Assembly: GCA_963697335.1 (NCBI GenBank)
Contig: CAVONQ010000014.1
Coordinates: 96,001 to 160,000 of the forward strand
Source of the DNA: an uncultured cyanobacterium
GTDB taxonomy: Bacteria; Cyanobacteriota; Cyanobacteriia; PCC-6307; Cyanobiaceae
Direction of reading: 5' to 3'
DNA: 64,000 bases
This document shows, in pieces, positions 16,079 to 38,406 of this stretch. Positions within the stretch are counted from its first letter, which is position 1. Each line of letters opens with the position of its first letter. Both the position numbers and the translations under genes were made by a program. Under the pieces are notes generated by a model. That model made no database searches. It worked only from the letters and a program-made list of their open reading frames with translations, and was not told where the DNA came from.

Positions 16079-16218
16079 GGCGGAACCCCGGCGACGGGTG
16101 AAGGCGGACTGCCGCACCCTCTCACCTCCCCGCGCTTCCGCAAAGCCCTCCCCGCTCCCCTTGGGCAGCTGCCGGAGCTTCAATGGTGGCCCACGCCTGT
16201 CGGAGCCCCCTCGCAGCG

Positions 16219-17058: not shown

Positions 17059-17085
17059 GCCCTACGTGGGGCATCAACGGCAACC

Positions 17086-17596: not shown

Positions 17597-17641
17597 GGCG
17601 CTGCAGAGCTTCCGGCAGAACTCTTGCAGAGTCCCTGTCTT

Positions 17642-18802
17642 TCAAGCCAACACCTCATCTGGGCACTCTGCCTCATGCCGCAGATCCAGAGAGAACAAGG
17701 CAGGCAGGGGGTCGTGCTGGAACTTCCGCCTCAGGGCGGCAGGAATTAGCCGTGCGAAAGGGATCCGGGGCAGGGGCAGTTCCTGCATCGGTTCGGAAGA
17801 ACCGTAGAGGTGGAGGTACTCGTCATAGTTGTCCCAGTCCTCCCGGGTGAAGCCGATACCGCGGAAGTTGGCGAAATAGGTTTCCACTGGCAGTCCATTG
17901 GCCCAGATCAGCCCGTGGGCTTCTAGCTCCACGTTGTAGTAGGTGTAGTACTCGTCCGCCTGGGCAGGATCCAGTTGTCTGATTGAGTAGTTGTTCAGCA
18001 GGGCACCGGCCTCCACGAGGTGACCATCGAGATCGATGGCATGGCTGGGGCTCATGAAGGTGTCGCGGCAGGGACCTAACTCACCGAGGGCTCCAGCGCT
18101 CAAGCGCACGGGCAGCTTGCCCATGGCCACAAGGGCGTTGCGATGGCGTCGGGTGCGGCAGACAAACTTCACAGGCTGGGGCCCTTCGGCGGTACTGATG
18201 AGATCACCGGGCTGCAGGGTTTCAATCTTCTGCTCTCCTTTTGGCGTAGCAATCAGGGTGCCAGGCAGGAAACAGACCACCCACAACACATCGGTAAAAT
18301 AGTTGTTCGCATTGAATGATTGCTGCGGGAAGGCACCAACCGCCTCTGCAAAAAGGCCATTACCGATACCCCCACCACTAAGCCCCAAGGGCTGGCCACT
18401 CGCAGGGGCAGACAAGAAACCACCCGGAGCGCTGTAGTCAGAATCGAAAAAAGAGCCCGTAAATGCATATGCATCATCAACACCATCATCGTCATAGCCA
18501 TAAGAAACGATATAAAGCTCGCCACCCGTGATCTGAATGGGGATGGGCAACGAGCCAACTTGCCAGCCGACATCGCCCACGCCGGAGCTGATCGTCAGCG
18601 ACACCAAAGGAGCACCACTGATGTTCCAAAGCGTCAACGTGCGCTCGTCCACATCCCCTGAATCTTCCAGGATGCGGTAATAGCGCAGACCTGTAATCAG
18701 CCCATCTTCGCTGGATCTGAATTTTGTAGCTAGCTCGTAGTCATTGGGGTCACTGCCTACACCCTGTGGCGTGAGACCAGTAAACAGGCTGAACGAAGTC
18801 AT
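17642..18802 (-). CDS. DUF4082-like domain fused to Hint_2 (bacterial intein-like) domain
   Basis: YELATKF..DGLITGLRYY..GWQ..YIVSY..NNYFTDV, then VCFLPGTLIATPKG..IETL.PGD..SPSH..YYNVELEAH..ANGLPVETY; start may be 18802 or 18901. Confidence 0.8.
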   Translation of the reverse strand: MTSFSLFTGLTPQGVGSDPNDYELATKFRSSEDGLITGLRYYRILEDSGDVDERTLTLWNISGAPLVSLTISSGVGDVGWQVGSLPIPIQITGGELYIVSYGYDDDGVDDAYAFTGSFFDSDYSAPGGFLSAPASGQPLGLSGGGIGNGLFAEAVGAFPQQSFNANNYFTDVLWVVCFLPGTLIATPKGEQKIETLQPGDLISTAEGPQPVKFVCRTRRHRNALVAMGKLPVRLSAGALGELGPCRDTFMSPSHAIDLDGHLVEAGALLNNYSIRQLDPAQADEYYTYYNVELEAHGLIWANGLPVETYFANFRGIGFTREDWDNYDEYLHLYGSSEPMQELPLPRIPFARLIPAALRRKFQHDPLPALFSLDLRHEAECPDEVLA

Positions 18803-20156
18803 GGCTGCGGTGCAGGCTGAAGACGATGATGAGGCTGTTGCTTGAATATCACTTTCGACGCTGACGAAGAACTGGACAGTCCGCTTCGACCAAGGGGTCA
18901 TCCATGGTGGGACAAAGACTTAGGCGCAGCAGAAGATTTACAGTAGAAGCGTTTACCTCGGAAGTACTTTCCGCACGATAGGCGAACCTTCAATGTAATC
19001 CTATGGTCAACCCAGCAAGAACGGAATGCGAATGAGCTCAAAGTTGCGTGATAGGAATAGCTTTGCACCTCTCTGACAATGGGGCAACAGAAGTTTGGAG
19101 GTGGTCGCGATGCGCCGCGAAAGCGGACTGACTGGGCCCAGAGCTCATCAAACGGCTGTCACCCAAGTCGTGACTGGGTCTGCAGGGGGCGTGCGGTCGG
19201 CTGATGCGTTTCTGCTTGGGCACGAAAATGCCCTTGCCAAGCCCCCCTCCCAGCCTGATCAACGTTCGTCGGATAGGCCCAATTGGCAGCGCCACCTGAA
19301 ACGTGATGGTCAGAGTACGTTGGGTAGAATGGGTTCACAAGTGCTGGCCGTAGCGAACGGGGCCACTGGGAATCGTTAGCCGTTGCCAGGAGCGACAGGC
19401 ATGACCAACTGCGTTGCGACTTTCTCCCGCTGTAGGCCTGCAGCTGCAGAGCAGGATCCCTGGCCTTCTGATCTGCTATCAACAGCGACAGGCCTGCAGG
19501 TGGAACAGCACCATCGCCGCGATAGATCCCATGGCAGCGAGAGGCACACCTCTGAGGGAGTCATCTGAGTAGCGCGCATGGAAATCCGCATGTCGCGAGT
19601 CGGCACGAAACGATGGGCAGGATGAACACCAGCGCCGCCCACGGTCGCAGGGGCAACCATCGATTCAGCTTTAAGCCAAAGAGAAGCGTTGGCAGGCCGG
19701 TTGGAGAATAGGAGGAAGAGCGTAAAGGGACCTTGATCCCAGCAAAGAACATACAGACCAACTCTTTTTAGGCAAAAGACAGCGACACTGAGGACATAAT
19801 AAAACCTGCCGATGATTCTTTTTGGACGGGCTGAGGCAAGCGAGCACTGGGGAATCGGGAACCCAGCCATCTGAAATGGAAACCAGCTGACGCATTTAGA
19901 TCAGAGATATACGGATTCCTGAACAACACAAGATTCAGGTATTTGTGGCTTTGCTGATCCAGCCAGGGCTCGTCTTGACAAGCGCAGCACCGACAGATAA
20001 CTTGCATTCTTGAGGGCCTAGGACTCCCCGAGCTCGCGTCACGTTGACGCCTCAAGGGATGTTTCCTGTCGCCTCAAATATGCTTCAATAGACCGCTCAC
20101 TATTCACTCGAATCTTTTGCCTCACGCCCAATCAGTTCCAAATTGCCAGCAACAAC

Positions 20157-22838
20157 GTGCACCTCTCAGACCTCACGCCCACCGAGAGCATCAACGGCTG
20201 GGGGCCTTACGAAGTCGACCGCAGCAACGGCGAGCGTGGTGCCAATGATGGCCGAACTCTCACCCTGAATGGCGTCACCTACGCCAAGGGCCTCGGTGTT
20301 CATTCCTTCTCATCGCTCACCTACGCCCTCGACAACCGTTTCAGTCGCTTCCAATCCTTCATCGGAGTCGATGATGAAGTAGGCAACTTTGGGTCAGTGA
20401 ACTTTAGAGTTCTTGTCGATGGACAGGAGATCTTCAGATCAAACACCCTTACAGGATCATCACCTACCCAGGCCATTGATCTTGACGTTTCGGGGAAACG
20501 GACTCTCCAATTGATCGTTGACAATGCCGACGGCAGGAGCGATTTCGACCACGCCAACTGGGCTGACGCCAAGCTGGTCAGTGCCCCGACCTCCCCTGCC
20601 ACCCTTCCCTCCATCAGTCTGGCCCTGGCCCCCACAGCCGTCCAGGAGGATGGGAGCCAAAACCTTGCTTACACCTTCACCCGCACAGGCGACACCAGCT
20701 CAGCTCTGAAGGTCAACTACACCGTCCGTGGGAGCGCCACCAACGGCACGGACTACTCCGGCATCAGCACCGCTGGGGCCACCAAAGCCGTCACCTTTGC
20801 CGCTGGCGCCACCAGCGCCGTTGTCACCGTTAATCCCACAGCTGATACCACGGTGGAGGCCAACGAAACCGTTGTCCTCTCGCTCGCGGCCGGCACCGGC
20901 TACACCATCGGCACCCAGGGCGCCGTCACCGGGACCATCAGGAACGATGACGTAGCCGCCCCGACACCAACACCATCACCGGCACCAGCACCGACCACAA
21001 CGTCGAGTCAGGTCAGCCTGCTTGACAGAGCTGGCGTAGGAGTCAACGGACGGGTCTATAACGATAATCAACCTGTCGAGCTTGGCATGGCCTTCAGTGT
21101 TGCCAGCAATGGCAAGATTGGAGAGCTGAAGTATTGGCGTGCCGCCGAGGACGCCAACGACACAGATGTGCGCGACATTCGCCTTTGGCGCAGCTCCGAT
21201 GGAGCCCTACTCTCATCCGCTAAGATCACATCTACCCCAGGTCAATCTGGGTGGCAGCGGGCACGCCTCAGCACTCCTGTTGATGTCGTGACAGGCCAGG
21301 AATACATCGTGTCCTATAGGACAAACGACAATTACTACGCGACAACTAACTTTTTCAGCCCTGCCAACGAAGCTGCCTTTGACGGCAGAGACGATAATAC
21401 CTTTAGCGACCCATCCGGAGTCATCCGTACTCCCCAGACTGGCGGAAGTTCAAGGAACAGCCTGTACAGCTATGGGAGTGCTGTGACACGTCCCAACCAA
21501 AGTTTCTCAGGATCAAATTACTGGGTTGATGCTGGCTTCTCCCCGCTCAGCACCTCTGAGCCTCCCAAGGAGAACAACAGTGCCGGTTCGCCGGCCTCCA
21601 TCAGCCTGGCCCTGGCACCCGCTGCGGTTCAAGAAGATGGCAGCGCAAATCTCACCTACACCTTCACGCGCAGTGGCAACACCAGCTCAGCACTGAGCGT
21701 CAACTACACCGTAGGCGGTACCGCCATCAACGGGAGCGACTACACCGGCATCAGCACCAGCGGGAGCACCAAGACTGTCAGCTTCGCCGCCGGCTCGTCC
21801 AACGCGGTTGTCAACGTCAATCCCACAGCAGACACCACAGTTGAAGCCGACGAAACCGTGGCCCTCTCCCTGGCAACAGGCAATGGCTACGGCATCGGCA
21901 CAACTGGTGCTGTCATAGGCACCATCAGCAATGACGACGTTGCGACGCCAACCCCGCCCTCCTTCCCGAGCGATGTGAGCATCCCCAGCAATGGCTGGTC
22001 GGTGAACGAAAACAATGTGGGCCTGGCGCAGTTCGGGATTGAGGGCGAATCTCTACCTGTCTACACCGGGCCCTATGAAATTCCAGCTGGCAGCGTGATC
22101 ACAGGCATGCGCTTCACCAGCCCTGTAAGCCTTTACCAGGGCAACATCACGATCGAAAAAAGCATCTTCCAGCCCACAAGTGCTGGTCGCGGCCTACCAA
22201 TCGTGACAACGACGAACTACAACGGCAATTACGAGTCTGCCAAGGGCAAGGTGGTGATCCGTGACAGTGAGTTCGACGGCAGCAAGCTCAACACCGAAAC
22301 CGCTGGCTGGGCCACCGCGTTCATCGGCGTTGCAGACCTCCAGCGCAACTATGTGCACGGCTTCGGAAGTGGCTTTGCATTAATGAACACCGGCAGGCAA
22401 TTTGACTCACTCATCGAGGGCAACTACATCACAAGATTGATTGCGTTTGGCAATCCAGCCACCACTGGCAACCACAATAATGCCTTCACCATCCGCGACT
22501 TTAGTGATGCCCAGCGCTCCGATCGCCGAGCCATCGTTCGGGGCAACCGCTTCGTTGCTGACTCCAACAACACCACCAGTGCGTTCTTCATCCAGGCCAA
22601 CACCGGACGAATTGACAACGTCAGCGTCGAGAACAATCTTCTTGAGGGCAGGGGTTACAACATTGGCCTGGAATCCAACAATGGGGGCTACAGCAATGTG
22701 AATGTCAGCAACAACCGTTTCAACCCCACTGGTTTTGGCGCCGCCTACGTCAATGGCGGCCCTGGGTGGAACAGCTGGAGCAACAACTTCCGTTACAACT
22801 CTGCCAACCCGAACGGAGCAGGAGCTGCCATCCTCTAG
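20157..22838 (+). CDS. surface/adhesin-like mosaic: NPCBM-NEW2, Calx-beta, DUF4082, Calx-beta, beta-helix
   Basis: HLSDL..NGWGPYEVDRSNGE..KGLGVH..DHANWADA (NPCBM); two Calx-beta repeats ending TI.NDD; VELGMAF..GWQ..SNYWVD (DUF4082); Asn/Gly-rich beta-helix C-terminus. Confidence 0.8.
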   Translation: MHLSDLTPTESINGWGPYEVDRSNGERGANDGRTLTLNGVTYAKGLGVHSFSSLTYALDNRFSRFQSFIGVDDEVGNFGSVNFRVLVDGQEIFRSNTLTGSSPTQAIDLDVSGKRTLQLIVDNADGRSDFDHANWADAKLVSAPTSPATLPSISLALAPTAVQEDGSQNLAYTFTRTGDTSSALKVNYTVRGSATNGTDYSGISTAGATKAVTFAAGATSAVVTVNPTADTTVEANETVVLSLAAGTGYTIGTQGAVTGTIRNDDVAAPTPTPSPAPAPTTTSSQVSLLDRAGVGVNGRVYNDNQPVELGMAFSVASNGKIGELKYWRAAEDANDTDVRDIRLWRSSDGALLSSAKITSTPGQSGWQRARLSTPVDVVTGQEYIVSYRTNDNYYATTNFFSPANEAAFDGRDDNTFSDPSGVIRTPQTGGSSRNSLYSYGSAVTRPNQSFSGSNYWVDAGFSPLSTSEPPKENNSAGSPASISLALAPAAVQEDGSANLTYTFTRSGNTSSALSVNYTVGGTAINGSDYTGISTSGSTKTVSFAAGSSNAVVNVNPTADTTVEADETVALSLATGNGYGIGTTGAVIGTISNDDVATPTPPSFPSDVSIPSNGWSVNENNVGLAQFGIEGESLPVYTGPYEIPAGSVITGMRFTSPVSLYQGNITIEKSIFQPTSAGRGLPIVTTTNYNGNYESAKGKVVIRDSEFDGSKLNTETAGWATAFIGVADLQRNYVHGFGSGFALMNTGRQFDSLIEGNYITRLIAFGNPATTGNHNNAFTIRDFSDAQRSDRRAIVRGNRFVADSNNTTSAFFIQANTGRIDNVSVENNLLEGRGYNIGLESNNGGYSNVNVSNNRFNPTGFGAAYVNGGPGWNSWSNNFRYNSANPNGAGAAIL
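20610..21944 (+). repeat. two diverged internal Calx-beta coding repeats (about 20610-20957 and 21597-21944)
   Basis: SISLALAP.AVQEDGS.NL.YTFTR.G.TSSAL.VNYTV...NPTADTTVEA.ETV.LSLA.G.GY.IGT.GAV.GTI.NDDVA present twice. Confidence 0.9.
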
Positions 22839-22866
22839 CTGAGGACCGAGGCCTGCCAGGCCTCGT

Positions 22867-24009
22867 TCATAACGGCTGCTTTGGGGAGATACCGGCGAGG
22901 CGAAGCATCTGAGCAGCACGGTTTGACCAGCCGTGCTCTCTGGCCAGCCGCTGGCGCTCTTCGGCGTCGGCCGGCGAAGGCGGTGTCGCGATGCACGCCA
23001 CCACGTGGGCTGCAAACGCCTCCGGCCCTCCGGCCAGACGGATGTGCTCGGTCGCCAACCAGCGCGAGGCATCCAGGTCCGTGGACACCACCGGCAATCC
23101 CGCAGCGAGATAGTCCAGGGTTTTGAGAGGAAAGCTGGCCTGGTTGAAGGGCGTGGTGCGATACGGAGTCAATCCCACGCGCACCGCACGCAATTCTTCC
23201 GCCACCCGTTCGGGGGGCATCCGCCCCAGCCACTCCACCCCCGGGCAAGCCAGCAGCTGATCCAACCGACTCCCGTAGTCAGGGTCGCGATCGGCACGAG
23301 GGCCCAGGACCCGCAGGTGCACGCCGGCCGCCACCACTGCCTCAAGACAGGCCAGATCAAGCCGCTCGTTCAGCTGGCCGATCAGGATCGCCACCGCGTC
23401 AGATCCATGGGGTGGCGCACCGGGGGACGGCGCTCCGTTAGGCAGCATCTCAGCAGGCACACCCTCCGCCCCCAAGGAGCGGAGCTGCTGGAGAAGCACC
23501 GGAGCCACCGCAGCCACGGCGTCCGCCTCGCGGGCGTTGGCCGCCATCACGCAGCGCACCCAGCGCCGCGAGAGTCCCATCAGGCTGGCGCCGGCCAGCC
23601 AGTCGTCTGTGGCGAACAGGATGCGCTGACCGCCAAGGCGGCGGGGAAACCGTGTCACCGGGTTGGCTACCACCACCGCCGCCGATTCAATCCCCGCGGG
23701 GAGAGCGCGCCGCAGCGTCCACCACTGCAGCAGCCTGGTGATCAGACGACCCGGCGGCTTGGTGAACAGGGGTGGGGCCGGCACTCGCACACGGAGAACC
23801 TGCGGCAGCACCTGCTCGATGGCAGGAGGCTTCCCCCGCAGCCAGCCGGCCCACTGGCCGCGGTGCGGGGAGTCGACGTAGATGACGGGGTGGGCGAGGG
23901 CGATCGCCTCCACCATGCGGCGTTCGTTACCGGGCAAGTCGTCCCAGCCGACGCCGGAAAGCCACACGATGGGGCCGCCTCTGGTGGGGGCTATGGTGAG
24001 GTCAGTCAT
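22867..24009 (-). CDS. glycosyltransferase, GT4/TuaH-like
   Basis: TDDWLAG, LPNG, IGQLNERLD, FPLKTLDYLAAGLPVVSTD, W.NRA. Confidence 0.88.
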   Translation of the reverse strand: MTDLTIAPTRGGPIVWLSGVGWDDLPGNERRMVEAIALAHPVIYVDSPHRGQWAGWLRGKPPAIEQVLPQVLRVRVPAPPLFTKPPGRLITRLLQWWTLRRALPAGIESAAVVVANPVTRFPRRLGGQRILFATDDWLAGASLMGLSRRWVRCVMAANAREADAVAAVAPVLLQQLRSLGAEGVPAEMLPNGAPSPGAPPHGSDAVAILIGQLNERLDLACLEAVVAAGVHLRVLGPRADRDPDYGSRLDQLLACPGVEWLGRMPPERVAEELRAVRVGLTPYRTTPFNQASFPLKTLDYLAAGLPVVSTDLDASRWLATEHIRLAGGPEAFAAHVVACIATPPSPADAEERQRLAREHGWSNRAAQMLRLAGISPKQPL

Positions 24010-25265
24010 GGGGAGGTCCTCCTGGTGCGGTCGGCGTTCTGGCGGGTCACGGGCCTGGCGTTGAAATCATCGGTGCGCTGCCGGCCCGCCAGCTTCCGCC
24101 ACCACTCGCCCGCCCCATAGGCGGCAAAACGCACGCCTGCCGCCAGATTCGCCGCCAAAGCGCCCTGCCGGGCTGGCCGCTCGAGGGCCTGCTCGTAGAG
24201 GCCAACCTGGATCCTGGCCGCTCGGGAGAGGGAGAAGCGCTCCACCGCCGTGGAGCGGCCGAAGTCGCCCAGCTCCTGCCTTAACGCCGTGTCGGCAAGC
24301 AGGGGCTGAAGCTCCAGCAGCAGGGTGGCGACACCGTCGCAGGCCGGGCCCCCGATGCCGTAGAGGCCGGTCCACAGGAAGTCGGCCAGGCTGTCGGGGG
24401 TGAGGGTGCGCCAGAACCCCAGCTCACCCTGAACGATCAAGGGCTTGCGAAACGCCATGGCCCGCAGGGCCGAGCCTCCCATCCCCAGGGCGATGTCAGC
24501 GGCCGCATAGGCCGGGCGCGGATCCTCCATCGCTCCCGTGAGGATCACCGTTCCGGCCCCACACCTGCCGTTCACCTGGGCAGCAAGGACCTCCACCTCA
24601 GGCCGCGCCGGGCCGTCCCCAACCAGAACCAGCCTGAGCCGCTGGTCGGAGCTGGTCTCGCCGATGGCGCGGATCGCTGAGAGGGTGCCCTCCAGCTTCA
24701 GCTCCCTGGACAGGCGGGCCACCGCCACCACGGCAATGGCGTCGTCAGGGATTCCCCAGCGGCGGCGAAACGCTGAGGCCTGGGCCTCGCAGGGGGCGTT
24801 GTGGTCGGTGTCAACCGGGGGCTCGAGCACCGACACCCGGCGGCGGCCGGCCTGGCGCTCGGCCTCGGCAATTTCCTCGGTACCCACCACCAGGTCGCGA
24901 TGGTGAGGAATGAACGGGGCGACGGCCATCGACATCACCGTGGTGATCACCCGGGTGGCCGGCCTGAGCGCAGCGGCCAGCTCCGCCTCCAGGGCAGGGG
25001 GCCATTCGTAGCCGTGCACGATGTCGATGCGTCGCTGCCGGGCGAGGCCCGCGATCGCCGCCACGATGGACAATGTGGGCCGCCGCCGGGGACGGGGGGA
25101 CTCGACGAAGCCCAGCCCCAAGTCCCGGATCCGGCTGAGCAGCTGGCCGGAGCGACCAAACACCACCACCTCATGGCCACGGTCCCGCACGGCAGCAGCC
25201 AGCTCGATGGCATTCAACTGGCTGCCTCCCAGCTCAAGGCTGTGGGGAATCACCATGATCCTCAT
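24006..25265 (-). CDS. glycosyltransferase family 4
   Basis: PHSLELGGSQLNAIELA, DIVHGYEW, LVGDGP, AMAFRKP. Confidence 0.88.
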   Translation of the reverse strand: MRIMVIPHSLELGGSQLNAIELAAAVRDRGHEVVVFGRSGQLLSRIRDLGLGFVESPRPRRRPTLSIVAAIAGLARQRRIDIVHGYEWPPALEAELAAALRPATRVITTVMSMAVAPFIPHHRDLVVGTEEIAEAERQAGRRRVSVLEPPVDTDHNAPCEAQASAFRRRWGIPDDAIAVVAVARLSRELKLEGTLSAIRAIGETSSDQRLRLVLVGDGPARPEVEVLAAQVNGRCGAGTVILTGAMEDPRPAYAAADIALGMGGSALRAMAFRKPLIVQGELGFWRTLTPDSLADFLWTGLYGIGGPACDGVATLLLELQPLLADTALRQELGDFGRSTAVERFSLSRAARIQVGLYEQALERPARQGALAANLAAGVRFAAYGAGEWWRKLAGRQRTDDFNARPVTRQNADRTRRTSP

Positions 25266-26596: not shown

Positions 26597-26626
26597 GGTC
26601 GGACTACATGGATCGCATGGAGATGA

Positions 26627-29013: not shown

Positions 29014-29501
29014 AGCACGCTACCTCGGTAATACGGGCCATTCTCTGAGGCCAGATGCGCCCACTGGGTCAGCCAGAGTTCAGCATGAGGGCCCGCTTTA
29101 CGACCAGCCAGAGAGAGTTCGTCGGCATTGGCAATGCTATCCACCCAGATCGTGCGAGCTCCAAAGAACCTGCCGATCCGAATCGCAAAATAGCCAGGTG
29201 CGGCACCGGTGGTGATCACAATGTCGGGCCGCTCCACCCAGATCAAGCGCAGGATGGCCCAGACGAGGCGCAGAAGGCCGAGCTTGTTCCAGCGGTTGGC
29301 ATCAGGGATAAGGCGGAATTCGTCCCCAGGGCTGAGGGTTTGGCGATAACCCGTGTTCGCCGTGGCGAAGACAACCTGGCAATCGGCGAAGGCAGGTCTC
29401 AACCGCAGAAGCTGCACCCAGTGGCCCCCACCGGAGGAGAGGGCAAGAACCCTGATCATCTGGCGGGCAGGCCGGGGGCGAGAAGGGATTCGCTTGAGCA
29501 C
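29010..29501 (-). CDS. PssD/Alg14-like glycosyltransferase subunit
   Basis: SSGGGHWVQL, RPDIVITTGAAP, IWVDSIAN, LTQW. Confidence 0.88.
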   Translation of the reverse strand: MLKRIPSRPRPARQMIRVLALSSGGGHWVQLLRLRPAFADCQVVFATANTGYRQTLSPGDEFRLIPDANRWNKLGLLRLVWAILRLIWVERPDIVITTGAAPGYFAIRIGRFFGARTIWVDSIANADELSLAGRKAGPHAELWLTQWAHLASENGPYYRGSVL

Positions 29502-29502
29502 G

Positions 29503-31122
29503 TCAATCTACCTCCCTGGCAGGGTCGAGAATAGAACGGAGCTTCGGCCATCTGCTTGCCGTTCCCGTCAAACGTAGCAAGGCGCGTAGGCAATACCACG
29601 TGCTGGCCACAGTGAGGCCAATGCCGAAGACAAGAGCTGCCCCCTGAGGTAGAACAAGCTGCAACACAAAGCTGACCCAGCAGGTCAGCAGAAAAGAGAG
29701 ACTTGCCCTGATGTTGTGAGCTGTAAACCTGAAGCCAGTGAGGCTTCGCGCGAGCGGGTAGACGACCAAAGCATGCAGCACGTAGGACAAGATGAAGGCA
29801 ACGCCAGCTCCGCCAAGCCCAAAGGTGCGCAGGCACCACCAAGTGGCGCCAACATTGAAGCTGGCCCAGATGAGCTCAGTAGCCAAGAAAGCGAGGCGTT
29901 TATTTTTAGCCACAATGATATAGCCCATCGGCCAGGTGATCACACGCATGGCCATGCCCAGACAGATCCAGCGCAAGAGCAAAACAGCTGCTTCGAACTT
30001 CGCGCTGTAGAACAGAAATACAACTACAGGTGCAAACGTGATTGTCGCGATGATGCCGGGGGCAGCTAGCAACAGACTGGCCTGGGTCTGCTCATTCACC
30101 GTGATATTGCAGACGTGATGGTCATTGATGACCCCTACGAGCCGCGGGTAAAAGTCCATCCCTAGGGCCTGAAGCACAAAGCCCACATAGAGCCCGCCCA
30201 ACGTCCAGGAGGCCTGATACATCCCTGCAGCATCAAGCCCCAGCGTTCGCAGCACTAATGTGCGTACCGCATAGGCCGCGCCGGCCATCAGCAGGCCGCT
30301 GCCCAGGAACGCCAGCCCCAGCTTGAAAAGTAGGGTGGACTCATGGACAATCTCTGCCGGCCTGGGAGAGACGGGAATGATCCGCACTTGTTGGCCATAC
30401 CACCAGGAAAGAGTGGCCGCAGCGATCGCAGCAGCCACCAAGGAGGGCACGATGCCCCGCTCGGCCATGCTGTAGACGATTGCCACGGTGGCCAGCCCCC
30501 CCAACAGCGCGCCATAGATGGCGACCTGCGCCATGGCTTTCATCCGGCGCATGCCCTGGAGCAGGGCCCCCTGCCCCCCTTCAACCACCCACAGGAAGAG
30601 GGCAAACGAGAGCAGCGCAATCGACGAGGCCTGCTCCTCGTTGCCGAAGGTCAGCCTCGACACGGCGCCGGAATTCATCCAGAGAGCGATGGCGCCGAGA
30701 GCGGCGCACAGCAGAGTCGTCCGCCGCAGCACTGTGGCGGTGAGAGCCAGGCGTTGCTGATCGCCTGAACTGGCGGCTTCAGCAATTTGTCGGACGCCAC
30801 TGCCGGTGAGGCCGAGCTGGGCGATGTTGCGGGACAGCTCCAGGATCATCGTGAACGCGCCCATCAGGCCGATGCCTGCCGGACCGAGCAGCACGGCAAG
30901 GGCCTTATTCCGCAAGGCACCAACAACGACATTGATTAGGGACGCCCCCCCGATCAACGCCGACGACTTCAGAATGGTGCCGAAGGTGCCGCTGGTTTTG
31001 GCGACCTCCGCGTTCGCCACTGCATCGCGGGCATCCGCACCAGTCCGTGACTGGACTGGAGGGGCCGCGGTGCCATCTGGCCCTGTCAACCGGAGCTCCT
31101 GATTCGGGGAGATGGTGCTCAA
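29503..31122 (-). CDS. wzx: Wzx flippase (O-antigen translocase)
   Basis: ILKSSALIGG, KALAVLLGPAGIG, DFYPRL, many TMs; TTG at 31122 lies just after the wcaJ stop (ORF track start 31197). Confidence 0.85.
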   Translation of the reverse strand: MSTISPNQELRLTGPDGTAAPPVQSRTGADARDAVANAEVAKTSGTFGTILKSSALIGGASLINVVVGALRNKALAVLLGPAGIGLMGAFTMILELSRNIAQLGLTGSGVRQIAEAASSGDQQRLALTATVLRRTTLLCAALGAIALWMNSGAVSRLTFGNEEQASSIALLSFALFLWVVEGGQGALLQGMRRMKAMAQVAIYGALLGGLATVAIVYSMAERGIVPSLVAAAIAAATLSWWYGQQVRIIPVSPRPAEIVHESTLLFKLGLAFLGSGLLMAGAAYAVRTLVLRTLGLDAAGMYQASWTLGGLYVGFVLQALGMDFYPRLVGVINDHHVCNITVNEQTQASLLLAAPGIIATITFAPVVVFLFYSAKFEAAVLLLRWICLGMAMRVITWPMGYIIVAKNKRLAFLATELIWASFNVGATWWCLRTFGLGGAGVAFILSYVLHALVVYPLARSLTGFRFTAHNIRASLSFLLTCWVSFVLQLVLPQGAALVFGIGLTVASTWYCLRALLRLTGTASRWPKLRSILDPAREVD

Positions 31123-31124
31123 GA

Positions 31125-32555
31125 TCAGAAGGCCGTATGGGAAAAGATGCTGATCGGCGTTCTCAGAAGAATTTCCAGATCCAGCATCAAGGACCACTCT
31201 CTTTGGTAACGCAGATCATCTTCAACCCGCGTCTGCATGGCCTTCAGGTCTGCCGTTTCGCCACGCCAGCCATCAACCTGAGCCAGACCTGTAATTCCAG
31301 GCTTACAGAGATGGCGCTCCATGTAGCCAGAAATCCGCTTACGGTAAAACTCATTGTGTTCGACGGCATGGGGCCGAGGACCCACCAGGCTCATCGAGCC
31401 ACTGAGCACATTGAAGAGCTGAGGAAGCTCATCCAGAGACCAACGGCGCAGGAAACGTCCCAACGGAGTCACCCGTGGATCGTTGCGCATGGCCTGTCTC
31501 AGGTGGGGCTGATCACCTCGCTCCATCACCGTCATGGTGCGAAATTTAAGGATTTTGAAGGGCCGACCATCAATCCCATACCGATCCTGCAAAAAGAGTA
31601 CAGGGCCAGGGCTGGTGAGCTTGATCAGGGCTGCGATGGTCAGCAGCAAGGGGGATAGCAGTGCCAGCAGACTGAACGAGATCAGAATGTCACTCAAGCG
31701 CTTGATCTGAAGGTCCATGAACACGGACTCCTTCCCCCAAAGACCAATGCAGAAGGCTGAACCGAGCTGCTCCACCTGAAAGCACATTGAGGGATGGGCC
31801 CATTCTGGGATATAATGGACGGGGCTACAGGTGTCTCCAAAGCACTTCAACAGTTCTTCTATCGGTACCGCATCGCCGGAAACATGACTGAAGAAGATCT
31901 TATCAATCCTGTTGGTGTTTAACCACTGCTGCATCTCGTTCAGACCGCCCGCACAGGGGGGCATTCCATCGGGGAGGTCAGGGGCCTGCCCTGAGGGATG
32001 GGGGCAGAACCACACCAGCAGCCTGAGACCCAGATAGGGATTCGCTTCCAATTCCTGGAACACCCGCATGGCCCCATCCCGGTTGCCCCAGAAGAGGACA
32101 AAGCGACTGTTTCCCCCACGACTGCGATAGAGCCGCAGCAGCTTTCGCCCACCAACATGGGTGACCACTAGGACGAGCCACACCGCAAGGGCCCAGAGCC
32201 CCAGATCAACCCGGGAAAGCTGGGTGCTGAGCTTGGTGGCAAAGGCTTCCAAGGAGAGTGCACTCAGCACCAGCAACCAACCCAGGGTCAGCTGGATGAG
32301 GAGCGTGGACAAGCTGCGCTGGCGAAAGGTCTCATAGACCCCGCAGAAAGGCAACACAACAGCGGAAAATATTCCAATCGTAATCACAAAGATCCAGAGC
32401 CATTCCACCGACAACGGAGATCGCTCCCAGTTAGGAATCAGCAAAAATAGCCAAGCGGGAATAAAAATGTCATGGACCCGAAGCAAGCGGGACAAGACAC
32501 CACCATAGAGTTGAAAGTAATGCGGGCGCATCGCTCTATATAGGAAGAGAGGCAA
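31125..32555 (-). CDS. wcaJ: undecaprenyl-phosphate hexose phosphotransferase (priming GT)
   Basis: IKRLSDI, KFRTM, NDPRVT..GRFLRRWSLDELPQLFNVL.GSMSLVGPRP, KPGITGLAQV. Confidence 0.92.
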   Translation of the reverse strand: MPLFLYRAMRPHYFQLYGGVLSRLLRVHDIFIPAWLFLLIPNWERSPLSVEWLWIFVITIGIFSAVVLPFCGVYETFRQRSLSTLLIQLTLGWLLVLSALSLEAFATKLSTQLSRVDLGLWALAVWLVLVVTHVGGRKLLRLYRSRGGNSRFVLFWGNRDGAMRVFQELEANPYLGLRLLVWFCPHPSGQAPDLPDGMPPCAGGLNEMQQWLNTNRIDKIFFSHVSGDAVPIEELLKCFGDTCSPVHYIPEWAHPSMCFQVEQLGSAFCIGLWGKESVFMDLQIKRLSDILISFSLLALLSPLLLTIAALIKLTSPGPVLFLQDRYGIDGRPFKILKFRTMTVMERGDQPHLRQAMRNDPRVTPLGRFLRRWSLDELPQLFNVLSGSMSLVGPRPHAVEHNEFYRKRISGYMERHLCKPGITGLAQVDGWRGETADLKAMQTRVEDDLRYQREWSLMLDLEILLRTPISIFSHTAF

Positions 32556-32986
32556 GGGCTGAGGCGCTGTTGCCTCGGAGCCATCAGCAGATGAATCAAC
32601 AAAAAGGCATTGGAGCGCCAGAATAAAATCACTGACGAAGAGTTATCTCCCCAGTCGCTACTGATTCGGCTTGTCTTGAGCCCAGTGGATTAGACCTTGA
32701 TCAGTTCATCCATGCTTTAGCTTATAAACCCATCACAACCTATGGGGCCCATCAGCTAGCAGACGCTGGTCCGACGCAGGCGCTGCACACCCACAACAAT
32801 TCGGCGCCATGCCAAAAGAGATGTTAAGCGTTGTTTACTCGACTCACTATCGACTTGGTGGCCTGTCTTTGGCAGGGATGCTGCACATTTACGCAGAATC
32901 AGCGCGTTGCAGCAAGGCAGAGGTGTTCAAGCGCCCCGGCTTTGGCCCAGGCGAGGCCCCCAGTCACTTTGGTGAGCCTTCGATCC

Positions 32987-35059
32987 TCAGGCCGTCGGAC
33001 GGTTGACCACAACCCCAAGCAGCTCAGCACCGAGGCTTCTGAAACGCTCGACCGCCTGGGCAGGCAGATCACGCTCCACCTGCTCCAGCCCCACCACCAG
33101 AATCACCCCATCGAGTTCCCTGCTCAACAGCAGGGCATCCGCCACCGCCAGACTGGCGGGGGAGTCGAACAGCACCGTGTCGTAGCCAGGCAGGTTGCGG
33201 ATCAGCGCGACCATGTGTCCACACAGCTCCCCGCTCCAGCTCCTGCAGACCGCCTCAGGGGCGGAGCCGGCGCTTAGCAGGTGCAGATTGGCGCCAAGGG
33301 ACTGGATCACAGCGTCAAGTGCCCTGGAGTCATCCGCCAGCAGGTCTGACAAGCCGACGCCGTTGGTGGCTCCCGCCATCCGGTGGAGACTGGGATGGCG
33401 AAGGTCAGCATCCACCACCAGCACCCGCTGACCCAGATCCGCCAGCGTCTGAGCGAGCCGGGTGGTGATCAGGCTCTTCCCTTCCCCGGCAGCGGCGGAT
33501 GCGATCAGGACCAGCCGCCGTTGGCGGCCAGCTGGCAGCAGCTCCAGCCTGCTGGCCAGATTGCGCATGCTCTCCTGAGCCAGGGGCACCGCATCCGTGT
33601 CCTCCTGGAAGTGGGGCAGATCTCCCAGCAGGGGCAGGGCAAGCTCCTGCTCCACCTCGCCTGAATGATGGTAGCGGCGATCCAGACGATCCCGCAGCAT
33701 GGCCGCGCCGCCGCCAGCCACCGCCCCAAGCACCAGCGTGAGAGCAAGGTTGCGGCCCATGTTGGGCTTGACAGGGCTGGGCTCGAAGCGGGGGGGCGAG
33801 ATGAGTTGCCAGGGCACCGTGCGCTGGGCCTCCTCCAGCCTGAAATCCTCGCGGGTGCTGATGTAAGAGGTGAGGTTCTGCCGTGCCACATCGAGGCGTT
33901 GCTGAATCGCGTCGTACTGCTTGACGAGGCCCGGGTTCGAGGCGAAGCGACGGCTCAGGGCCTGGGCTTGTCGCTCCAGCTCCCTCTGCTCACTCCTCGA
34001 TTCGGCCAGGGAGGCCTCAATGGCATCGCGATCCTTCCGCTGCAGCAGCGACCGGACACGGTTCAAACGGTCCCGCAGACTCCTCACCTGGGGGGCATCT
34101 GGCAGGAAACTCGCCTCAGCTTCGGCCAGTTGCTTCTCCAGATCGCTCACCTGGCCGGCCAAATCCTCTTCACCGCTTCCCTGGGAGCGGGGCACAGACA
34201 ACCGTCCCGAGCGCACCGTGGCCAGGTTCCCGAGCAGCTGGGCCTCCCGCTGCTTCAACGCGCTCAACTGGGCCTCGAGCTTCTGGCGTTGCTCCTGAAT
34301 CGCCTCCCCCTGCTTGAGCGGTTCGAGGAAGTCGTTGCGCCTGCGGAACAGGGAGAGTTGCCCCTGCAGCTCCACCACCTGACTCACCAGGGAAGGAGCC
34401 TGATCATCGAGAAAGGACAGGCCTTCGGCAAGCTTGTCCTGCCTCTGGAGCAGGGAGAAGTCCAGATAGTCTTTGCTGATCGCCTCAAGAATCTTTGCCC
34501 CTTGCCGCGGATCATTCCATTCGAGGGTCACATCGAGAACACCTTCGGCATTGAGGGCAGCCGTTTGAATGCTGAGGCCCTCTTCCAATTGATCCAAGCT
34601 CACCTCCAACCGCGTGGCAATCGGCTGGAGCAGCAACGGACTGCGCAGCACCTGGATGAGGTTGGGGATGTTGGCCGTACTCGAGGGATCCAGGGCCAGA
34701 CCCCTCAGGTTTCCCTGGTCGTTTCCACCACTATTTTCGTAATTGAGGGGATCACTGACGAGCAGGAGGAAGCTTCCGGAATACACAGGGGCGAGCAGGC
34801 GCTTGCCCAGGCTGAACAGCGCGCCCAGGGCAATGACAACGCTGAACACCGTCATCGCCAGGCGCCGGCGCCGTTTCAGGACATCCACAACAGCGGCGAG
34901 GCGCAAGGGCTCCTGGCCCGCTGGGCCGCTCGAGAAGCCGCCACCAGCGTCAGAGACCTCCTGGGGGATCAACACGACCTGGGCCTGGGCGAAATCCGCT
35001 GCGGCCATCCCCGACTGGACAGGGGCCGCTTCTGAAGGAAAGCGCGAGCCGGCGGCCAT
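32987..35059 (-). CDS. wzc: polysaccharide co-polymerase / BY-kinase Wzc (GumC family)
   Basis: two TMs flanking coiled coil, P..P..P motif, Walker A GEGKS, VDADLRHP, FDSPA. Confidence 0.88.
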   Translation of the reverse strand: MAAGSRFPSEAAPVQSGMAAADFAQAQVVLIPQEVSDAGGGFSSGPAGQEPLRLAAVVDVLKRRRRLAMTVFSVVIALGALFSLGKRLLAPVYSGSFLLLVSDPLNYENSGGNDQGNLRGLALDPSSTANIPNLIQVLRSPLLLQPIATRLEVSLDQLEEGLSIQTAALNAEGVLDVTLEWNDPRQGAKILEAISKDYLDFSLLQRQDKLAEGLSFLDDQAPSLVSQVVELQGQLSLFRRRNDFLEPLKQGEAIQEQRQKLEAQLSALKQREAQLLGNLATVRSGRLSVPRSQGSGEEDLAGQVSDLEKQLAEAEASFLPDAPQVRSLRDRLNRVRSLLQRKDRDAIEASLAESRSEQRELERQAQALSRRFASNPGLVKQYDAIQQRLDVARQNLTSYISTREDFRLEEAQRTVPWQLISPPRFEPSPVKPNMGRNLALTLVLGAVAGGGAAMLRDRLDRRYHHSGEVEQELALPLLGDLPHFQEDTDAVPLAQESMRNLASRLELLPAGRQRRLVLIASAAAGEGKSLITTRLAQTLADLGQRVLVVDADLRHPSLHRMAGATNGVGLSDLLADDSRALDAVIQSLGANLHLLSAGSAPEAVCRSWSGELCGHMVALIRNLPGYDTVLFDSPASLAVADALLLSRELDGVILVVGLEQVERDLPAQAVERFRSLGAELLGVVVNRPTA

Positions 35060-35242
35060 GGCGGAGGGCTTCCATTTTGAGCGAACCTTAGTCCAATTCC
35101 AAAGGCCTGATTAGAGAGACGCAGGCACCGGCGCTCCTGAAACTAAAAACTTGCGCGTTTGCACAAAAGTTGCCAGTGTGACAATCGCGCCATCATTTAT
35201 GGCTCAGTGTCTAGGGTTGAGTGGGCCAGATTCCTGGGCTGC

Positions 35243-36412
35243 ATGGATTCCCCAATGGTGCCTGTGAATGGACTGTGGCGTGGTGGACGGAGCAGGCCCC
35301 AGTGCAGAGCCTCCAGGACGCTGGTTGCTTTGATCGCCCTCGGCGGCATCCTGGCCACGAGCAGCCTGCCGCCAACCCCCGCAGCCGCGTCGCAGGCCGG
35401 CCCCCAGGCGATGGGCGGATCCACCAGAAGTCCCGGCAGCGATGCCTACATCCTCGGGCCCGGGGACCAACTGCAAGTCGAGATGCTCGACCCCGTGGTG
35501 AAGGACCTGGGCGGCACCTTCGAAATCCTGAACGACGGGAGCGCCAGCCTGGCCATGCTCGGCTCGGTGGTGCTCGAAGGCCTCACGCTCAACCAGGCGA
35601 CCCAGTGGCTCACCCGCGTCTATGGCCGCTACCTGCGTCGCCCCGAGCTCAACTTGCGCATCGTCCGCCCTCGCCCGGTCCAGGTGTCCCTGGTGGGCGA
35701 AGTGCAGTCCCCGGGCCTCTACGCGCTCACGGACAGCGAACCGTCACAGGCCGAGCCGGCCTCGTCCACATCCACCACAAGCGTCACCGGGTTGCCCACC
35801 GTAGTGACGGCGATCCGCAAAGCCGGCGGACTCACCGCCAACGCCAACCTCAGCGACGTGGTTCTGCGCCGGCGCCTGCCTGGCTCCAGCGAGCAGCTGA
35901 AGGAACGGCGCCTGGACCTGTTGGCCCTGCTGCGGCAGGGGGACAAGCAGCAAAATCCCTTCCTCTTTGATGGCGACACCCTGGTAATCGGCAAGGCGGA
36001 CGTCGTGGAACCCGACGCCATGGAACTGGCCGCCACCAACCTCGCCCCCCCGGAGATTCAGGTGAATGTGGTGGGAGAAGTGGTGGCTCCAGGCCGGATT
36101 CCGCTCCCCGCCAACACCCCATTAGTTCAGGCCGTGCTGGCGGCCGGCGGCCCCGTCACCTTCCGGGGACGGCGGAGTGATGTGGAGCTAGTGCGGATCA
36201 ACCGCAACGGCACCGCCACCCGTGAGTTCTTCCAACTGGACTATTCGCAAGGCATGAGCGGACCTCTCAATCCGCCCCTGCGCAATGGCGATTCGGTAAT
36301 TGTCAACCGCAGCGCCTACGCCAAGGTCTCCGATGCCATCGGCGCAGTGGCCAACCCGATATCGGGGCTGGTCAACATTTTATTGCTTGCTGACATTATC
36401 AACGGCTTGTGA
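35243..36412 (+). CDS. wza: polysaccharide export protein (OPX/Wza, SLBB domains)
   Basis: YILGPGD, DGSASL..LG, VGEV.SPG.Y, KAGGLT, L..GD, VVGEV..PG. Confidence 0.88.
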   Translation: MDSPMVPVNGLWRGGRSRPQCRASRTLVALIALGGILATSSLPPTPAAASQAGPQAMGGSTRSPGSDAYILGPGDQLQVEMLDPVVKDLGGTFEILNDGSASLAMLGSVVLEGLTLNQATQWLTRVYGRYLRRPELNLRIVRPRPVQVSLVGEVQSPGLYALTDSEPSQAEPASSTSTTSVTGLPTVVTAIRKAGGLTANANLSDVVLRRRLPGSSEQLKERRLDLLALLRQGDKQQNPFLFDGDTLVIGKADVVEPDAMELAATNLAPPEIQVNVVGEVVAPGRIPLPANTPLVQAVLAAGGPVTFRGRRSDVELVRINRNGTATREFFQLDYSQGMSGPLNPPLRNGDSVIVNRSAYAKVSDAIGAVANPISGLVNILLLADIINGL

Positions 36413-37290: not shown

Positions 37291-37297
37291 TCGAGGG

Positions 37298-38352: not shown

Positions 38353-38406
38353 GGAGGACGGGCTGCTGCCGGCTGAGTCGGCTGGTAAGTTCTTGCGGTG
38401 TGGTTC

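Follow-up and report, generated by a model that had tools for sequence, protein, structure and literature searches.

Two DUF4082 proteins, one ending in a Hint_2 cassette and one in a predicted beta-helix module, within a strain-specific polysaccharide island of a Cyanobium-like picocyanobacterium

The DNA considered here, referred to as the window, is a whole stretch of 64,000 nucleotides taken from contig 14 (positions 96001-160000; G000:C14:96001-160000) of a 2.58 Mb genome with about 68% GC in 18 contigs, and the named homologues of its proteins are proteins of Cyanobium and Synechococcus. An earlier note, made from the letters of this stretch, proposed that two divergent genes with related DUF4082-type domains, one coding for a self-cleaving Hint protein and another for a beta-helix surface protein, constitute together with the adjoining exopolysaccharide cluster a dedicated system not described before; the two proteins comprise 386 and 893 amino acids (aa), respectively. 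Here, we characterize the island carrying these genes, in which the larger protein most likely represents a polymer-processing enzyme of the cluster supplied with lectin-like targeting modules, of the WceF/Ply/AlgG kind. The island, both genes with their parts and the non-cluster elements are as follows.

17632..37296 (borders approximate), no strand: strain-specific island of 19.7 kb, GC 55-65% against 68-74% in the flanks, missing in G106, the closest same-genus genome
17642..18802, minus strand: DUF4082-Hint_2 gene, 386 aa (Pfam); the open reading frame (ORF) runs to 18901, database copies begin at M34
17645..17869, minus strand: tail of 75 aa after the Hint domain (alignment A2), motif WDNY..Y..LYG....ELxLPRIPFARQLP
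17870..18274, minus strand: Hint_2 domain, residues 177-311 (PF13403, E 2.5e-29, 103 bits against a cut-off of 28.4; profile positions 1-145 of 147)
18272..18274, minus strand: codon of Cys177, the first Hint residue, at the predicted scissile junction V176/C177, invariant in A2
18275..18802, minus strand: head, residues 1-176, modelled (AF2) as a DUF4082 lectin-like beta-sandwich, N-terminus MTSFSLFTGL
18803..20156, no strand: divergent intergenic region of 1.35 kb with low GC between both DUF4082 genes
20157..22838, plus strand: 893-aa multidomain protein, GTG start, no signal peptide (Pfam)
20160..20576, plus strand: NPCBM domain, residues 2-140 (PF08305, E 2.2e-47)
20604..20966, plus strand: Calx-beta repeat 1, approximately residues 150-270 (Pfam, repeat-level matches)
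21054..21527, plus strand: DUF4082 domain, residues 300-457 (PF13313, E 7.1e-29, 101 bits against a cut-off of 28.4)
21594..21947, plus strand: Calx-beta repeat 2, approximately residues 480-597 (Pfam, repeat-level matches)
21954..22835, plus strand: C-terminal module of 294 aa, residues 600-893, predicted right-handed parallel beta-helix (AlphaFold pLDDT 94.6; VIA-align)
36409..37290, plus strand: putative gene, ORF of 293 aa, last in the island, its product Pro-rich in the tail and with a single hydrophobic segment

The GC profile drops to 55-65% over about 18-36 kb of the window. In G106 the segments corresponding to window positions 14160-17444 (91.7% identity) and 37295-48151 (87.6%) are contiguous, and about 30 bp replace window ~17632-37296. 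A DNA search with window 15500-35400 as a query gave, in 30 of 30 sampled same-genus genomes, a conserved match over query positions 1-2131 only, which ends at window 17630, 10 bp from the stop of the Hint gene. Up to window position 35400, these 30 genomes revealed nothing of the island as conserved DNA, except for patchy domain-level matches to the Hint cassette, Calx-beta and pieces of WcaJ and Wzc. Since this query stopped at 35400, the right border is set by the comparison with G106 alone. Direct repeats of at least 8 bp were not found at the island borders. The Hint gene, the 1.35-kb spacer, the gene of the 893-aa protein, the whole polysaccharide cluster and the last ORF form a single insertion/deletion block, on which both DUF4082 genes are co-inherited with the cluster; joint function is not implied by this. 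Scans of the spacer (18803..20156) revealed no Rfam match, tRNA, sigma-70-like consensus site, terminator or convincing ORF. The 293-aa ORF at the opposite end (36409..37290), the start of which overlaps the stop of wza by 4 nt, has no Pfam or NCBIfam match. Genes for tRNA-Tyr(GTA) and tRNA-Thr(GGT) are located in tandem at window 38407-38571, 1.1 kb to the right of the island border, and this pair may mark an island hot spot.

All four domain families that the earlier note named for the two proteins (DUF4082, Hint_2, NPCBM and Calx-beta) were matched by hidden Markov model search with Pfam, Calx-beta in the 893-aa protein being recognized at E 5.4e-14 over two stretches, and signal peptides are absent from both proteins. 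Residues 600-893 of the larger one gave no Pfam match at E<=0.01 and no NCBIfam match, and the profile of 35 sequences of this module (alignment A1, used for the AlphaFold model and for the metagenome search) retrieved among PDB sequences nothing better than chance matches at E 2.2. Foldseek comparison of the model with the PDB gave no match at E<=1e-3, and every one of its top rows is a right-handed parallel beta-helix. Structural comparison by VIA-align with 48,161 chains placed 143 of them at Z of at least 8, the best being an alginate epimerase/lyase (8ja4, Z 19.7, rmsd 3.5 over 228 aligned residues), followed by the tailspike of cyanophage Pam1 (Z 19.6), GH87 (Z 19.4), AlgE4 (Z 19.1), NosD (Z 17.9), AlgG (Z 17.8), PfbA (Z 17.3) and RbmB (Z 16.6). 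With the named matches lying at Z 16-20, the beta-helix previously supposed for this protein may be regarded as settled at the level of a predicted model. Its chemistry is not fixed by the fold, because the Z-scores of enzymes and adhesins are nearly tied. In A1, 25 columns are invariant in 35 sequences, including G613, W614, H773, R780, R790 and N797, while D707, E754 and D781 are near-invariant; H773, R780, R790 and N797 are candidates only for the role of catalytic residues.

A HMMER search over 1.84 billion cluster representatives found 254 matches to the module at E<=1e-3 (186 at E<=1e-10), and nearly all of them extend to the protein C-terminus. Among proteins of 491-1563 aa, residues 600-893 have 56 homologues, and DUF4082 stands immediately ahead of the module in 40 of them; three, from Microlunatus, Nocardioides and Acidipropionibacterium, are named 'DUF4082 domain-containing protein', and GH16, Laminin_G_3, Ig, alpha/beta-hydrolase and fn3 are other domains found in this set. 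Pfam search on 120 representatives detected DUF4082 in 14, NPCBM and Laminin_G_3 in two each, GH16 in one and Ig/fn3/cadherin-like domains in several, most of them being composed of the module alone after a short leader, and the Pfam model Beta_helix (PF13229) touches three of the 120, all distant. Actinobacterial module proteins have signal peptides, and some relatives are the module alone, 300-400 aa, with a signal peptide only. Such a constant C-terminal module behind varying binding modules is the usual layout of carbohydrate-active enzymes, which supports the enzyme reading, and the beta-helix is the constant, and probably also the catalytic, unit of a family having neither a Pfam nor an NCBIfam model. 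The closest relatives of the 893-aa protein, metagenomic P0062 and P0064, carry the module twice, one copy per end, with Calx-beta, DUF4082 and Calx-beta in between and no signal peptide. Neither a full-length homologue of the 893-aa protein nor the module was found in 150 family genomes, and as judged by this distribution the module appears to be a rare import in this lineage.

Search of JGI metagenome contigs with the A1 profile revealed 42 loci, or 36 distinct ones once six near-identical pairs are merged, and the Pfam search covered 17 long loci from 15 distinct contigs. Polysaccharide biosynthesis genes (glycosyltransferases being denoted by their GT family) surround the module on five of these 15:

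L039/L041: GT2, NodZ, Wzy_C, AsnB, GT4, DUF4082-beta-helix, GT4, GT2, PglD-like, epimerase, Wzx
L045 (one contig with L059): Wzy_C, GT2-Rhamno_transf, two GT4, AsnB, beta-helix, RmlA, RmlCD
L059 (same contig as L045): second DUF4082-beta-helix gene with WsaF, ABC, GT4
L049: Wzy_C, DUF4082-beta-helix, Rhamno_transf, two GT2, AsnB, GT4, UDP-glucose dehydrogenase
L044: GT2-Rhamno_transf
L070: Wzy_C, epimerase, Bac_transf, GT4, AsnB

Comparison of the window's cluster proteins with the 42 loci by tblastn detected an orthologue of AsnB (40-63% identity, full length where the contig permits) at a distance of 140-6322 bp from the module in seven of 36 distinct genes (L039=L041, L045, L046~L047, L049, L063, L070 and L075), or in six of 19 if at least 3 kb of flank is available on one side. 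The closest AsnB/GT4 spacing to the module is 140-152 bp on the same strand, and a TuaH-like GT4 gene adjoins AsnB in five loci (L039, L045, L049, L063 and L070). For a gene type with few copies per genome this proximity looks far above chance, an estimate for which no formal background was computed. The conserved neighbourhood thus supports the view that the beta-helix gene is functionally linked to the AsnB-containing type of Wzy cluster. No Hint_2 gene was found at the loci of beta-helix relatives on the 15 distinct long contigs.

In the island itself, the order of the cluster genes is GT4, GT4, polytopic membrane protein, AsnB, PssE-like, PssD-like, Wzx, WcaJ, Wzc-like and divergent Wza:

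22867..24009, minus strand: GT4 glycosyltransferase, TuaH-like (Pfam; NCBIfam TuaH 72 bits, far under the cut-off)
24006..25265, minus strand: GT4 glycosyltransferase (Pfam)
25262..26596, minus strand: polytopic membrane protein, putative Wzy polymerase / O-antigen-ligase-like (judged by topology with a lead from the ESM Atlas)
26627..28489, minus strand: AsnB-type glutamine amidotransferase (Pfam; TIGR01536 431.9 against a cut-off of 267.1, passes)
28477..29013, minus strand: PssE/Alg13-like half of a split glycosyltransferase (Glyco_tran_28_C; PssE 94.6 bits against a cut-off of 120)
29010..29501, minus strand: PssD/Alg14-like half of a split glycosyltransferase (Pfam; best NCBIfam match under the cut-off)
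29503..31197, minus strand: Wzx-type flippase (Polysacc_synt_3, 54 bits against a cut-off of 23)
31125..32555, minus strand: WcaJ-type undecaprenyl-phosphate glucose phosphotransferase (TIGR03023 WcaJ_sugtrans 418.5 against 410.75, passes)
32987..35059, minus strand: Wzc-like chain-length determinant fused to a tyrosine autokinase (P-loop families pass cut-offs)
35159..36412, plus strand: Wza-type outer-membrane polysaccharide export protein (Poly_export 48.6 against a cut-off of 28, plus two SLBB)

The previous description of this set as a complete wzc-wcaJ-wzx-pssDE-asnB-wzy-GT-GT cluster with divergent wza holds for WcaJ, Wzx, AsnB (by the general model) and Wza, which pass curated cut-offs, and less firmly for the rest. 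The Wzc autokinase model TIGR01007 scores 91.8, under its cut-off of 108, which makes the Wzc half of the Wza/Wzc export pair the weaker one. The PssE-like protein also matches WelK (glucuronosyltransferase, 77 bits), likewise under the cut-off. The presumed wzy (25262-26596) has no Pfam match even at E<=10; overlapping hydrophobic windows of its product merge into about seven regions, and its nearest ESM Atlas clusters belong to the 'O-antigen ligase family', with Wzy_C on 14% of one cluster, which is taken as a lead only. The best NCBIfam model for AsnB is eps_aminotran_1 of the WbpS/WbqG type (TIGR03108), at 467 bits under the cut-off of 816.9. The true start of Wzx is probably located downstream of its ORF start, which overlaps wcaJ. 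Best NCBIfam matches of the island's AsnB, GT4 and Wza are models of XrtA/PEP-CTERM systems, all under cut-off, and an exosortase (EpsH family, PF09721, 56.9 bits) is encoded on the same contig (G000:C14:182333-182956), ~22 kb past the window end. The exosortase/PEP-CTERM route was rejected for the DUF4082 proteins, neither of which has a PEP-CTERM-like C-terminal tail. Window 50291-63268, where GC falls to 55% at 54-58 kb, holds a second polysaccharide/glycan cluster including genes for a Wza-like protein (Poly_export/SLBB), DSP-type phosphatase, DegT aminotransferase, ABC exporter (ABC_membrane+ABC_tran), GT10, NodZ-methyltransferase fusion, several GT2 and one GT4.

The smaller DUF4082 protein is 100% identical to P0001 (386 aa). 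Its DUF4082 domain was recognized in ORF 17642-18901 at E 5.1e-22 and 78.8 bits against the cut-off of 28.4 (PF13313), and the last strand of this domain (NYFTDVLWVV) joins Cys177 directly, with no linker. All 21 sequences of A2 share C177, H254 (of the S-P-S-H block), H296 and E307 without exception. Both the nucleophilic Cys as the first Hint residue and the block-B Ser-x-x-His, as expected of B-type bacterial intein-like (BIL) domains, are present; such domains should also depart from inteins at the C-terminus, where a terminal Asn with a downstream nucleophile is lacking, and the domain here ends by ...ANGLPVETYF with the invariant E307, as read from A2. BIL domains of B-type occupy hypervariable regions of non-conserved bacterial proteins, show intein-like N-terminal cleavage and autocleave at their own ends, as presented in the review of them (PMC7765530). 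The 75-aa tail has no Pfam match at E<=10, and a tail of ~60-75 aa is conserved across the family, even in the alphaproteobacterial member P0051. A polymorphic toxin with a Hint release domain was considered and rejected, since the tail after Hint is conserved and devoid of a toxin domain, and the variable part is N-terminal.

Fusion of DUF4082 with Hint_2 was met in three of 61 near-length matches (P0001-P0003) and in none of the 120 longer matches listed, while the remaining near-length matches have only residues ~175-362 in common (45-65% identity) and unrelated N-termini. Among the 120 longer matches listed, ~62 carry RTX repeats just upstream of Hint, some being named 'type I secretion protein' at their source, and other heads include cadherin/VCBS, FG-GAP, autotransporter-type repeats, metalloprotease and GT4, the latter in the fusions P0285, P0291 and P0296. 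The cassette (query 175-362) was detected in 29 of 400 Cyanobiaceae genomes, where it forms the C-terminal end of frames ranging in length from about 60 to 2847 aa and may be present in four or more copies in a single genome; the DUF4082-Hint fusion was not found in these 400 genomes, and the search for its orthologues in GTDB species genomes gave one locus, matching by the Hint part only. P0002 is identical in the head at 172 of 176 positions (98%) and in the cassette at 162 of 210 (77%), and P0003 shares the head and then diverges, which indicates that heads and cassettes recombine. By its sequence, the DUF4082-Hint gene thus appears as one of many 'variable head + constant Hint_2-plus-tail' genes with B-type BIL-like products. 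No paper joining 'Hint domain' with 'Synechococcus' was found in the literature.

Relatedness of the DUF4082 domains from the two proteins, as stated in the earlier note, is confirmed by Pfam scores of 78.8 and 101 bits and by 33% identity over 170 columns (E 6e-19). The acidic segment that was noticed in both is indeed present at residues 40-59 of the smaller protein (window 18626-18685) and 325-344 of the larger one (window 21129-21188), where it is an Asp-rich version of the loop between two conserved strands; it is not private to them. The same variant was observed in three of four DUF4082 copies of the C18 giant protein of this very genome (the fourth was not aligned in alignment A4), in both aligned copies of G110:C31 and in P0062, P0064 and P0070, while more distant members have 'NTGTH' in its place, so that the segment seems to be a trait of a cyanobacterial-type subfamily. 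Moreover, DUF4082 of the Hint protein is nearer to the C18 giant (39-43% identity) than to its 893-aa neighbour (33-36%). This giant, a 1923-aa frame at G000:C18:123908-129676 (L079:9909-15677, minus strand) with DMFA2_C, four DUF4082 and Calx-beta, adjoins CobW, ATP-grasp and transglutaminase genes and lies outside any polysaccharide cluster. The head of the 386-aa protein, the only part folded, was modelled from the 18 sequences of A4 with AF2 pLDDT 83.5 as a beta-sandwich, for which VIA-align found the lectin-like domain of Cwp84 (Z 12.5) and PHR domains (Z 10-12) as best matches, followed by phage/virus capsid, decoration or tail-tip domains (Z 10-11), N-terminal polymer-binding domains of carbohydrate esterases (Z 8-9.5) and CBM32/F-lectins (about Z 6). 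The model suits a binding module of lectin-like/PHR-like fold, and the literature offers incidental mentions of DUF4082 only, none of them on function.

The pairing of both genes was followed through 18 Hint loci, one from the same genome and 17 from family genomes, by Pfam search on their ORFs. None of the 18 lies within a Wza/Wzc/Wzx/Bac_transf cluster and none adjoins a gene of DUF4082 or of the beta-helix family. Glycosyltransferase or dTDP-rhamnose genes accompany 10 of 18, a count given with no background control:

L089, L091, L094, L096: rmlABCD beside Hint_2 cassette genes
L089, L091, L092: TPR-Gly_transf_sug beside Hint_2 cassette genes
L086, L090, L095: DUF4915-GNAT-TPR-GT41 beside Hint_2 cassette genes
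L093: GT2-GT4 beside the Hint_2 cassette
L082: GT10 beside the Hint_2 cassette

The second Hint cassette of the same genome, in an 825-aa frame on C11, adjoins an NKWYS capsule-type gene, and Hint_2-cassette genes form tandems of four in L089 and of two in L096. These neighbours may reflect only residence in surface-glycan islands, or hint at Hint_2-cassette proteins being glycosylated or belonging to a rhamnose-glycan surface system. At L080 (G092:C8) a 2502-aa Hint_2-tailed protein with an LTD domain is encoded tail-to-head with a 2496-aa RTX/CARDB/cadherin giant. In sum, the gene-neighbourhood check suggested in the earlier note turned out positive for beta-helix relatives, met with polysaccharide clusters on five of 15 contigs and with AsnB in seven of 36 genes, and negative for the Hint loci (0 of 18). 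With the fusion rare and Hint and beta-helix genes paired at 0 of 18 Hint loci and on 0 of 15 beta-helix contigs, a dedicated, conserved two-protein system is not supported, and what connects the Hint gene with the cluster is their co-inheritance.

The explanation we prefer considers window ~17632-37296 as a horizontally acquired, strain-specific cell-surface island, the core of which would be a Wzx/Wzy-dependent polysaccharide pathway with Wza/Wzc export. Synthesis would start with the WcaJ-type Glc-1-P transferase and continue by a split transferase of the PssDE/WelK-like type, probably glucuronosyl-specific, and by both GT4 enzymes, while the AsnB/WbpS-like amidotransferase would most likely turn a uronic acid into its amide. 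The beta-helix may act as a lyase, C5-epimerase or glycanase on the uronate-containing chain, to which NPCBM, two Calx-beta and the lectin-like DUF4082 would keep the 893-aa protein attached, and the enzyme would trim or epimerise nascent or released polymer or determine its chain length, like WceF, PlyA/B and AlgG. In the 386-aa protein, Cys177 is expected to perform an N-to-S acyl shift giving a thioester, resolved most likely by hydrolysis, by which the head would be freed from the Hint-tail cassette. The latter looks like a shared processing/sorting module exchanged by recombination among many surface-type proteins; it occupies the place at which type I substrates have their secretion signal, a processing or sorting role is probable, and for both signal-peptide-less proteins a type I-like, C-terminus-dependent route of export appears most likely. 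Taken as a whole, from the island and its pathway to the 893-aa enzyme, the cleaving 386-aa protein and export, this explanation has in our estimate a slightly better than even chance to be correct. The domains, the folds (as models), the borders of the island, the conserved gene neighbourhoods and the conserved residues of catalytic type are what the data show, and all enzymatic activities, cleavage, export and any contact with the polymer are inferred from them.

Several observations weigh against it. Pfam found neither RTX repeats (HemolysinCabind) in the two proteins nor a transporter in the island, and among the HlyD-like genes in this genome the best one reaches 185.8, under the cut-off of 208.65, and lies on another contig. 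The Hint protein is tied to the polymer by position and shared domain type only. For the beta-helix, enzymes, adhesins (PfbA, 17.3) and NosD (17.9) have nearly tied Z-scores, catalytic residues are not assignable and Foldseek gave no match at E<=1e-3. Searches of 400 sampled cyanobacterial genomes and of the 150 family genomes did not retrieve the module, so that its role in this phylum is judged from a single locus. Polysaccharide genes are missing on 10 of the 15 contigs of relatives (L036, L043, L050, L051, L053, L054, L057, L066, L072 and L073), of which L057 and L072 are low-GC and phage-like, with genes for dATP/dGTP diphosphohydrolase, Macro, dCMP deaminase and GDSL lipase; there the module may additionally function as a depolymerase of phages. 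Finally, wzy, PssD/E and the kinase model of Wzc fall under curated cut-offs.

The alternatives differ mainly in the place they give to each of the two proteins. The most serious of them, which we consider doubtful yet worth keeping in mind, takes the DUF4082-Hint gene for a passenger at the edge of a hypervariable island, unrelated to the polysaccharide and serving, for example, as a surface protein for evasion of phages or grazers. Its position at the extreme left border, with the stop 10 bp from the junction, the recombining cassette, and the very varied contexts of the family, with several copies per genome and tandems (four in L089, two in L096), all fit a passenger, while its absence from G106 jointly with the cluster and a head of the domain type most often accompanying the beta-helix family speak against this reading. 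An opposite view, corresponding to the proposal of the earlier note and in our opinion unlikely, unites both DUF4082 proteins in a dedicated protein layer, with a polysaccharide hydroxyl or amine attacking the Hint thioester and the DUF4082 head becoming covalently attached. Inheritance of both genes and the cluster as one block, the same Asp-rich DUF4082 subtype in both proteins, intact Hint catalytic residues with the head directly abutting, sugar-related genes (glycosyltransferase or dTDP-rhamnose) at 10 of 18 Hint loci of relatives, again with no background control, and the existence of glycosyltransferase-Hint_2 fusions (P0285, P0291, P0296) are what one might expect of such a layer. These points are countered by the lack of Hint_2 genes on the 15 distinct beta-helix contigs, by 0 of 18 Hint loci found in a Wza/Wzc/Wzx cluster or beside a DUF4082/beta-helix gene, by the fusion in only three sequences among the matches listed, by the greater similarity of the Hint protein's DUF4082 to the C18 giant (39-43% against 33-36% for the neighbour) and by the Asp-rich segment being a trait of the subfamily rather than of the pair. 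Covalent coupling by Hint chemistry is purely inferential. An extended version of this view, to which we assign a very low probability, makes of the Hint_2-plus-tail cassette a general export-coupled 'release or transfer' module of surface proteins lacking a signal peptide, in which the tail would direct export by a C-terminus-dependent route and the thioester would be attacked, instead of by water, by a nucleophile of a surface glycan, here the island's amidotransferase-modified polymer, planting the head covalently on the polysaccharide, with the beta-helix/AsnB/GT4 triad supplying and tailoring the acceptor. Hedgehog is attached to cholesterol via Hint chemistry, and if the extended version were true, cassette transfer would be a bacterial counterpart of Hedgehog cholesteroylation. 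A precedent of another kind is the amidotransferase-dependent linking sugar used in the type IX system for covalent attachment of proteins to glycan, as far as outlined in PMC7468200.

With regard to the 893-aa protein, it may be asked whether its helix is an enzyme at all. Pneumococcal PfbA and autotransporter passengers are beta-helices that only bind, and a structural adhesin or matrix protein tethering polymer or cells would agree with PfbA (Z 17.3) and Vag8/pertactin-type helices among the structural matches, with four of five modules being of binding type, with none of the catalytic motifs of known CAZy families being recognized and with the 893-aa protein being missed by Pfam Beta_helix. 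Against this stand the His/Arg/Asn/Asp/Glu columns invariant across phyla, the relatives of 300-400 aa consisting of the module alone with a signal peptide, and the tight same-strand coupling to AsnB/GT4, down to 140-152 bp; since conserved columns, stand-alone modules and this coupling suit a pathway enzyme better, we regard the adhesin as improbable. Even less credit, close to none, is given by us to a domesticated or remnant phage depolymerase (tailspike) within a prophage-derived island. Tailspikes are among the best structural matches (cyanophage Pam1, Z 19.6) and the relatives L057 and L072 reside on phage-like contigs, but Pfam found no phage structural, integrase or replication gene in the island, att-like border repeats are lacking, and the gene is embedded among biosynthesis genes here and in relatives.

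Surface islands of picocyanobacteria decide who is eaten or infected, and their gene content is mostly unannotated. Members of the compact beta-helix family, fused most often to DUF4082, are repeatedly coupled in several phyla to Wzy-like and GT4 genes and to an amidotransferase resembling WbpS, whereby DUF4082 acquires a testable role in glycan targeting and the beta-helix family a testable role as a polymer-modifying unit dedicated to the pathway. The 386-aa protein is a small model that makes the long-open question of the purpose of B-type BIL domains approachable, and the clean borders of the island relative to a close relative offer a natural knock-in/knock-out pair.

Comparison with known systems shows how much of this arrangement has precedents. 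The cassette resembles B-type BIL domains (Amitai 2003; Dassa 2004; both as cited in PMC7765530) in its occurrence in hypervariable surface-type proteins, in Cys1 with the block-B His and in the terminal cleavage to be expected; it differs in that the DUF4082 head is a rare partner here and in that the cyanobacterial/alphaproteobacterial subgroup has a conserved tail of ~60-75 aa without a model. Enzymes WbpS and WbqG (eps_aminotran_1) make uronamides, according to PMC7468200, and the island's AsnB is likened to them by its best NCBIfam match, by its place in a surface-polysaccharide cluster and by adjoining wzx-type genes, although its 467 bits are under the TIGR03108 cut-off of 816.9. As described there, in Porphyromonas an amidotransferase-derived sugar links secreted proteins by an amide bond to a surface glycan (PMC7468200). 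Alginate C5-epimerases and epimerase/lyases (8ja4; AlgE4, 2pyg; AlgG, 4nk8) and the Vibrio lyase RbmB (9ozd), with Z of 19.7, 19.1, 17.8 and 16.6 to the module, are pathway-encoded beta-helix enzymes modifying a uronate polymer after polymerisation; their identity to the module is 13-18%, no shared motif is established and the Z-scores are tied with those of unrelated helices and adhesins.

The arrangement as such was put forward as a candidate for an undescribed system, but exopolysaccharides with secreted lectins and glycanases are already documented in PMC9298526 and PMC7949094 for Rhizobium Rap/Ply and Pantoea WceF. In Rhizobium leguminosarum, Rap lectins and PlyA/PlyB glycanases are secreted by the type I system PrsDE (PMC9298526), so that a pss-type (PssD/PssE) acidic polymer is served by signal-peptide-less binders and cutters setting its length, which is exactly the 'protein layer' of the earlier note. 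The likeness is drawn by description: the domains there are Ra/cadherin-like, with no Hint domain as judged from the abstract, the domains here are DUF4082, NPCBM and Calx-beta, and, unlike the Rhizobium system, this island has no PrsDE-like transporter. WceF of Pantoea stewartii (PDB 6tgf), which modifies glycan and has its gene within the cluster for stewartan synthesis (PMC7949094), is likewise a right-handed parallel beta-helix protein from a Wzx/Wzy exopolysaccharide cluster that acts on the anionic polymer of its own cell and also binds in a lectin-like manner. It appears in the Foldseek list by a weak match (E 4.3e-2) with no sequence similarity detected, and forms a tailspike-like trimer without DUF4082, NPCBM or Calx-beta, whereas the activity of the 893-aa protein is predicted only. 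Beyond these precedents, what appears to be new here is a beta-helix family without a model or sequence-related solved structure whose favourite partner is DUF4082, the conserved coupling of this family to an amidotransferase and GT4, and the rare DUF4082 head on a Hint_2 cassette.

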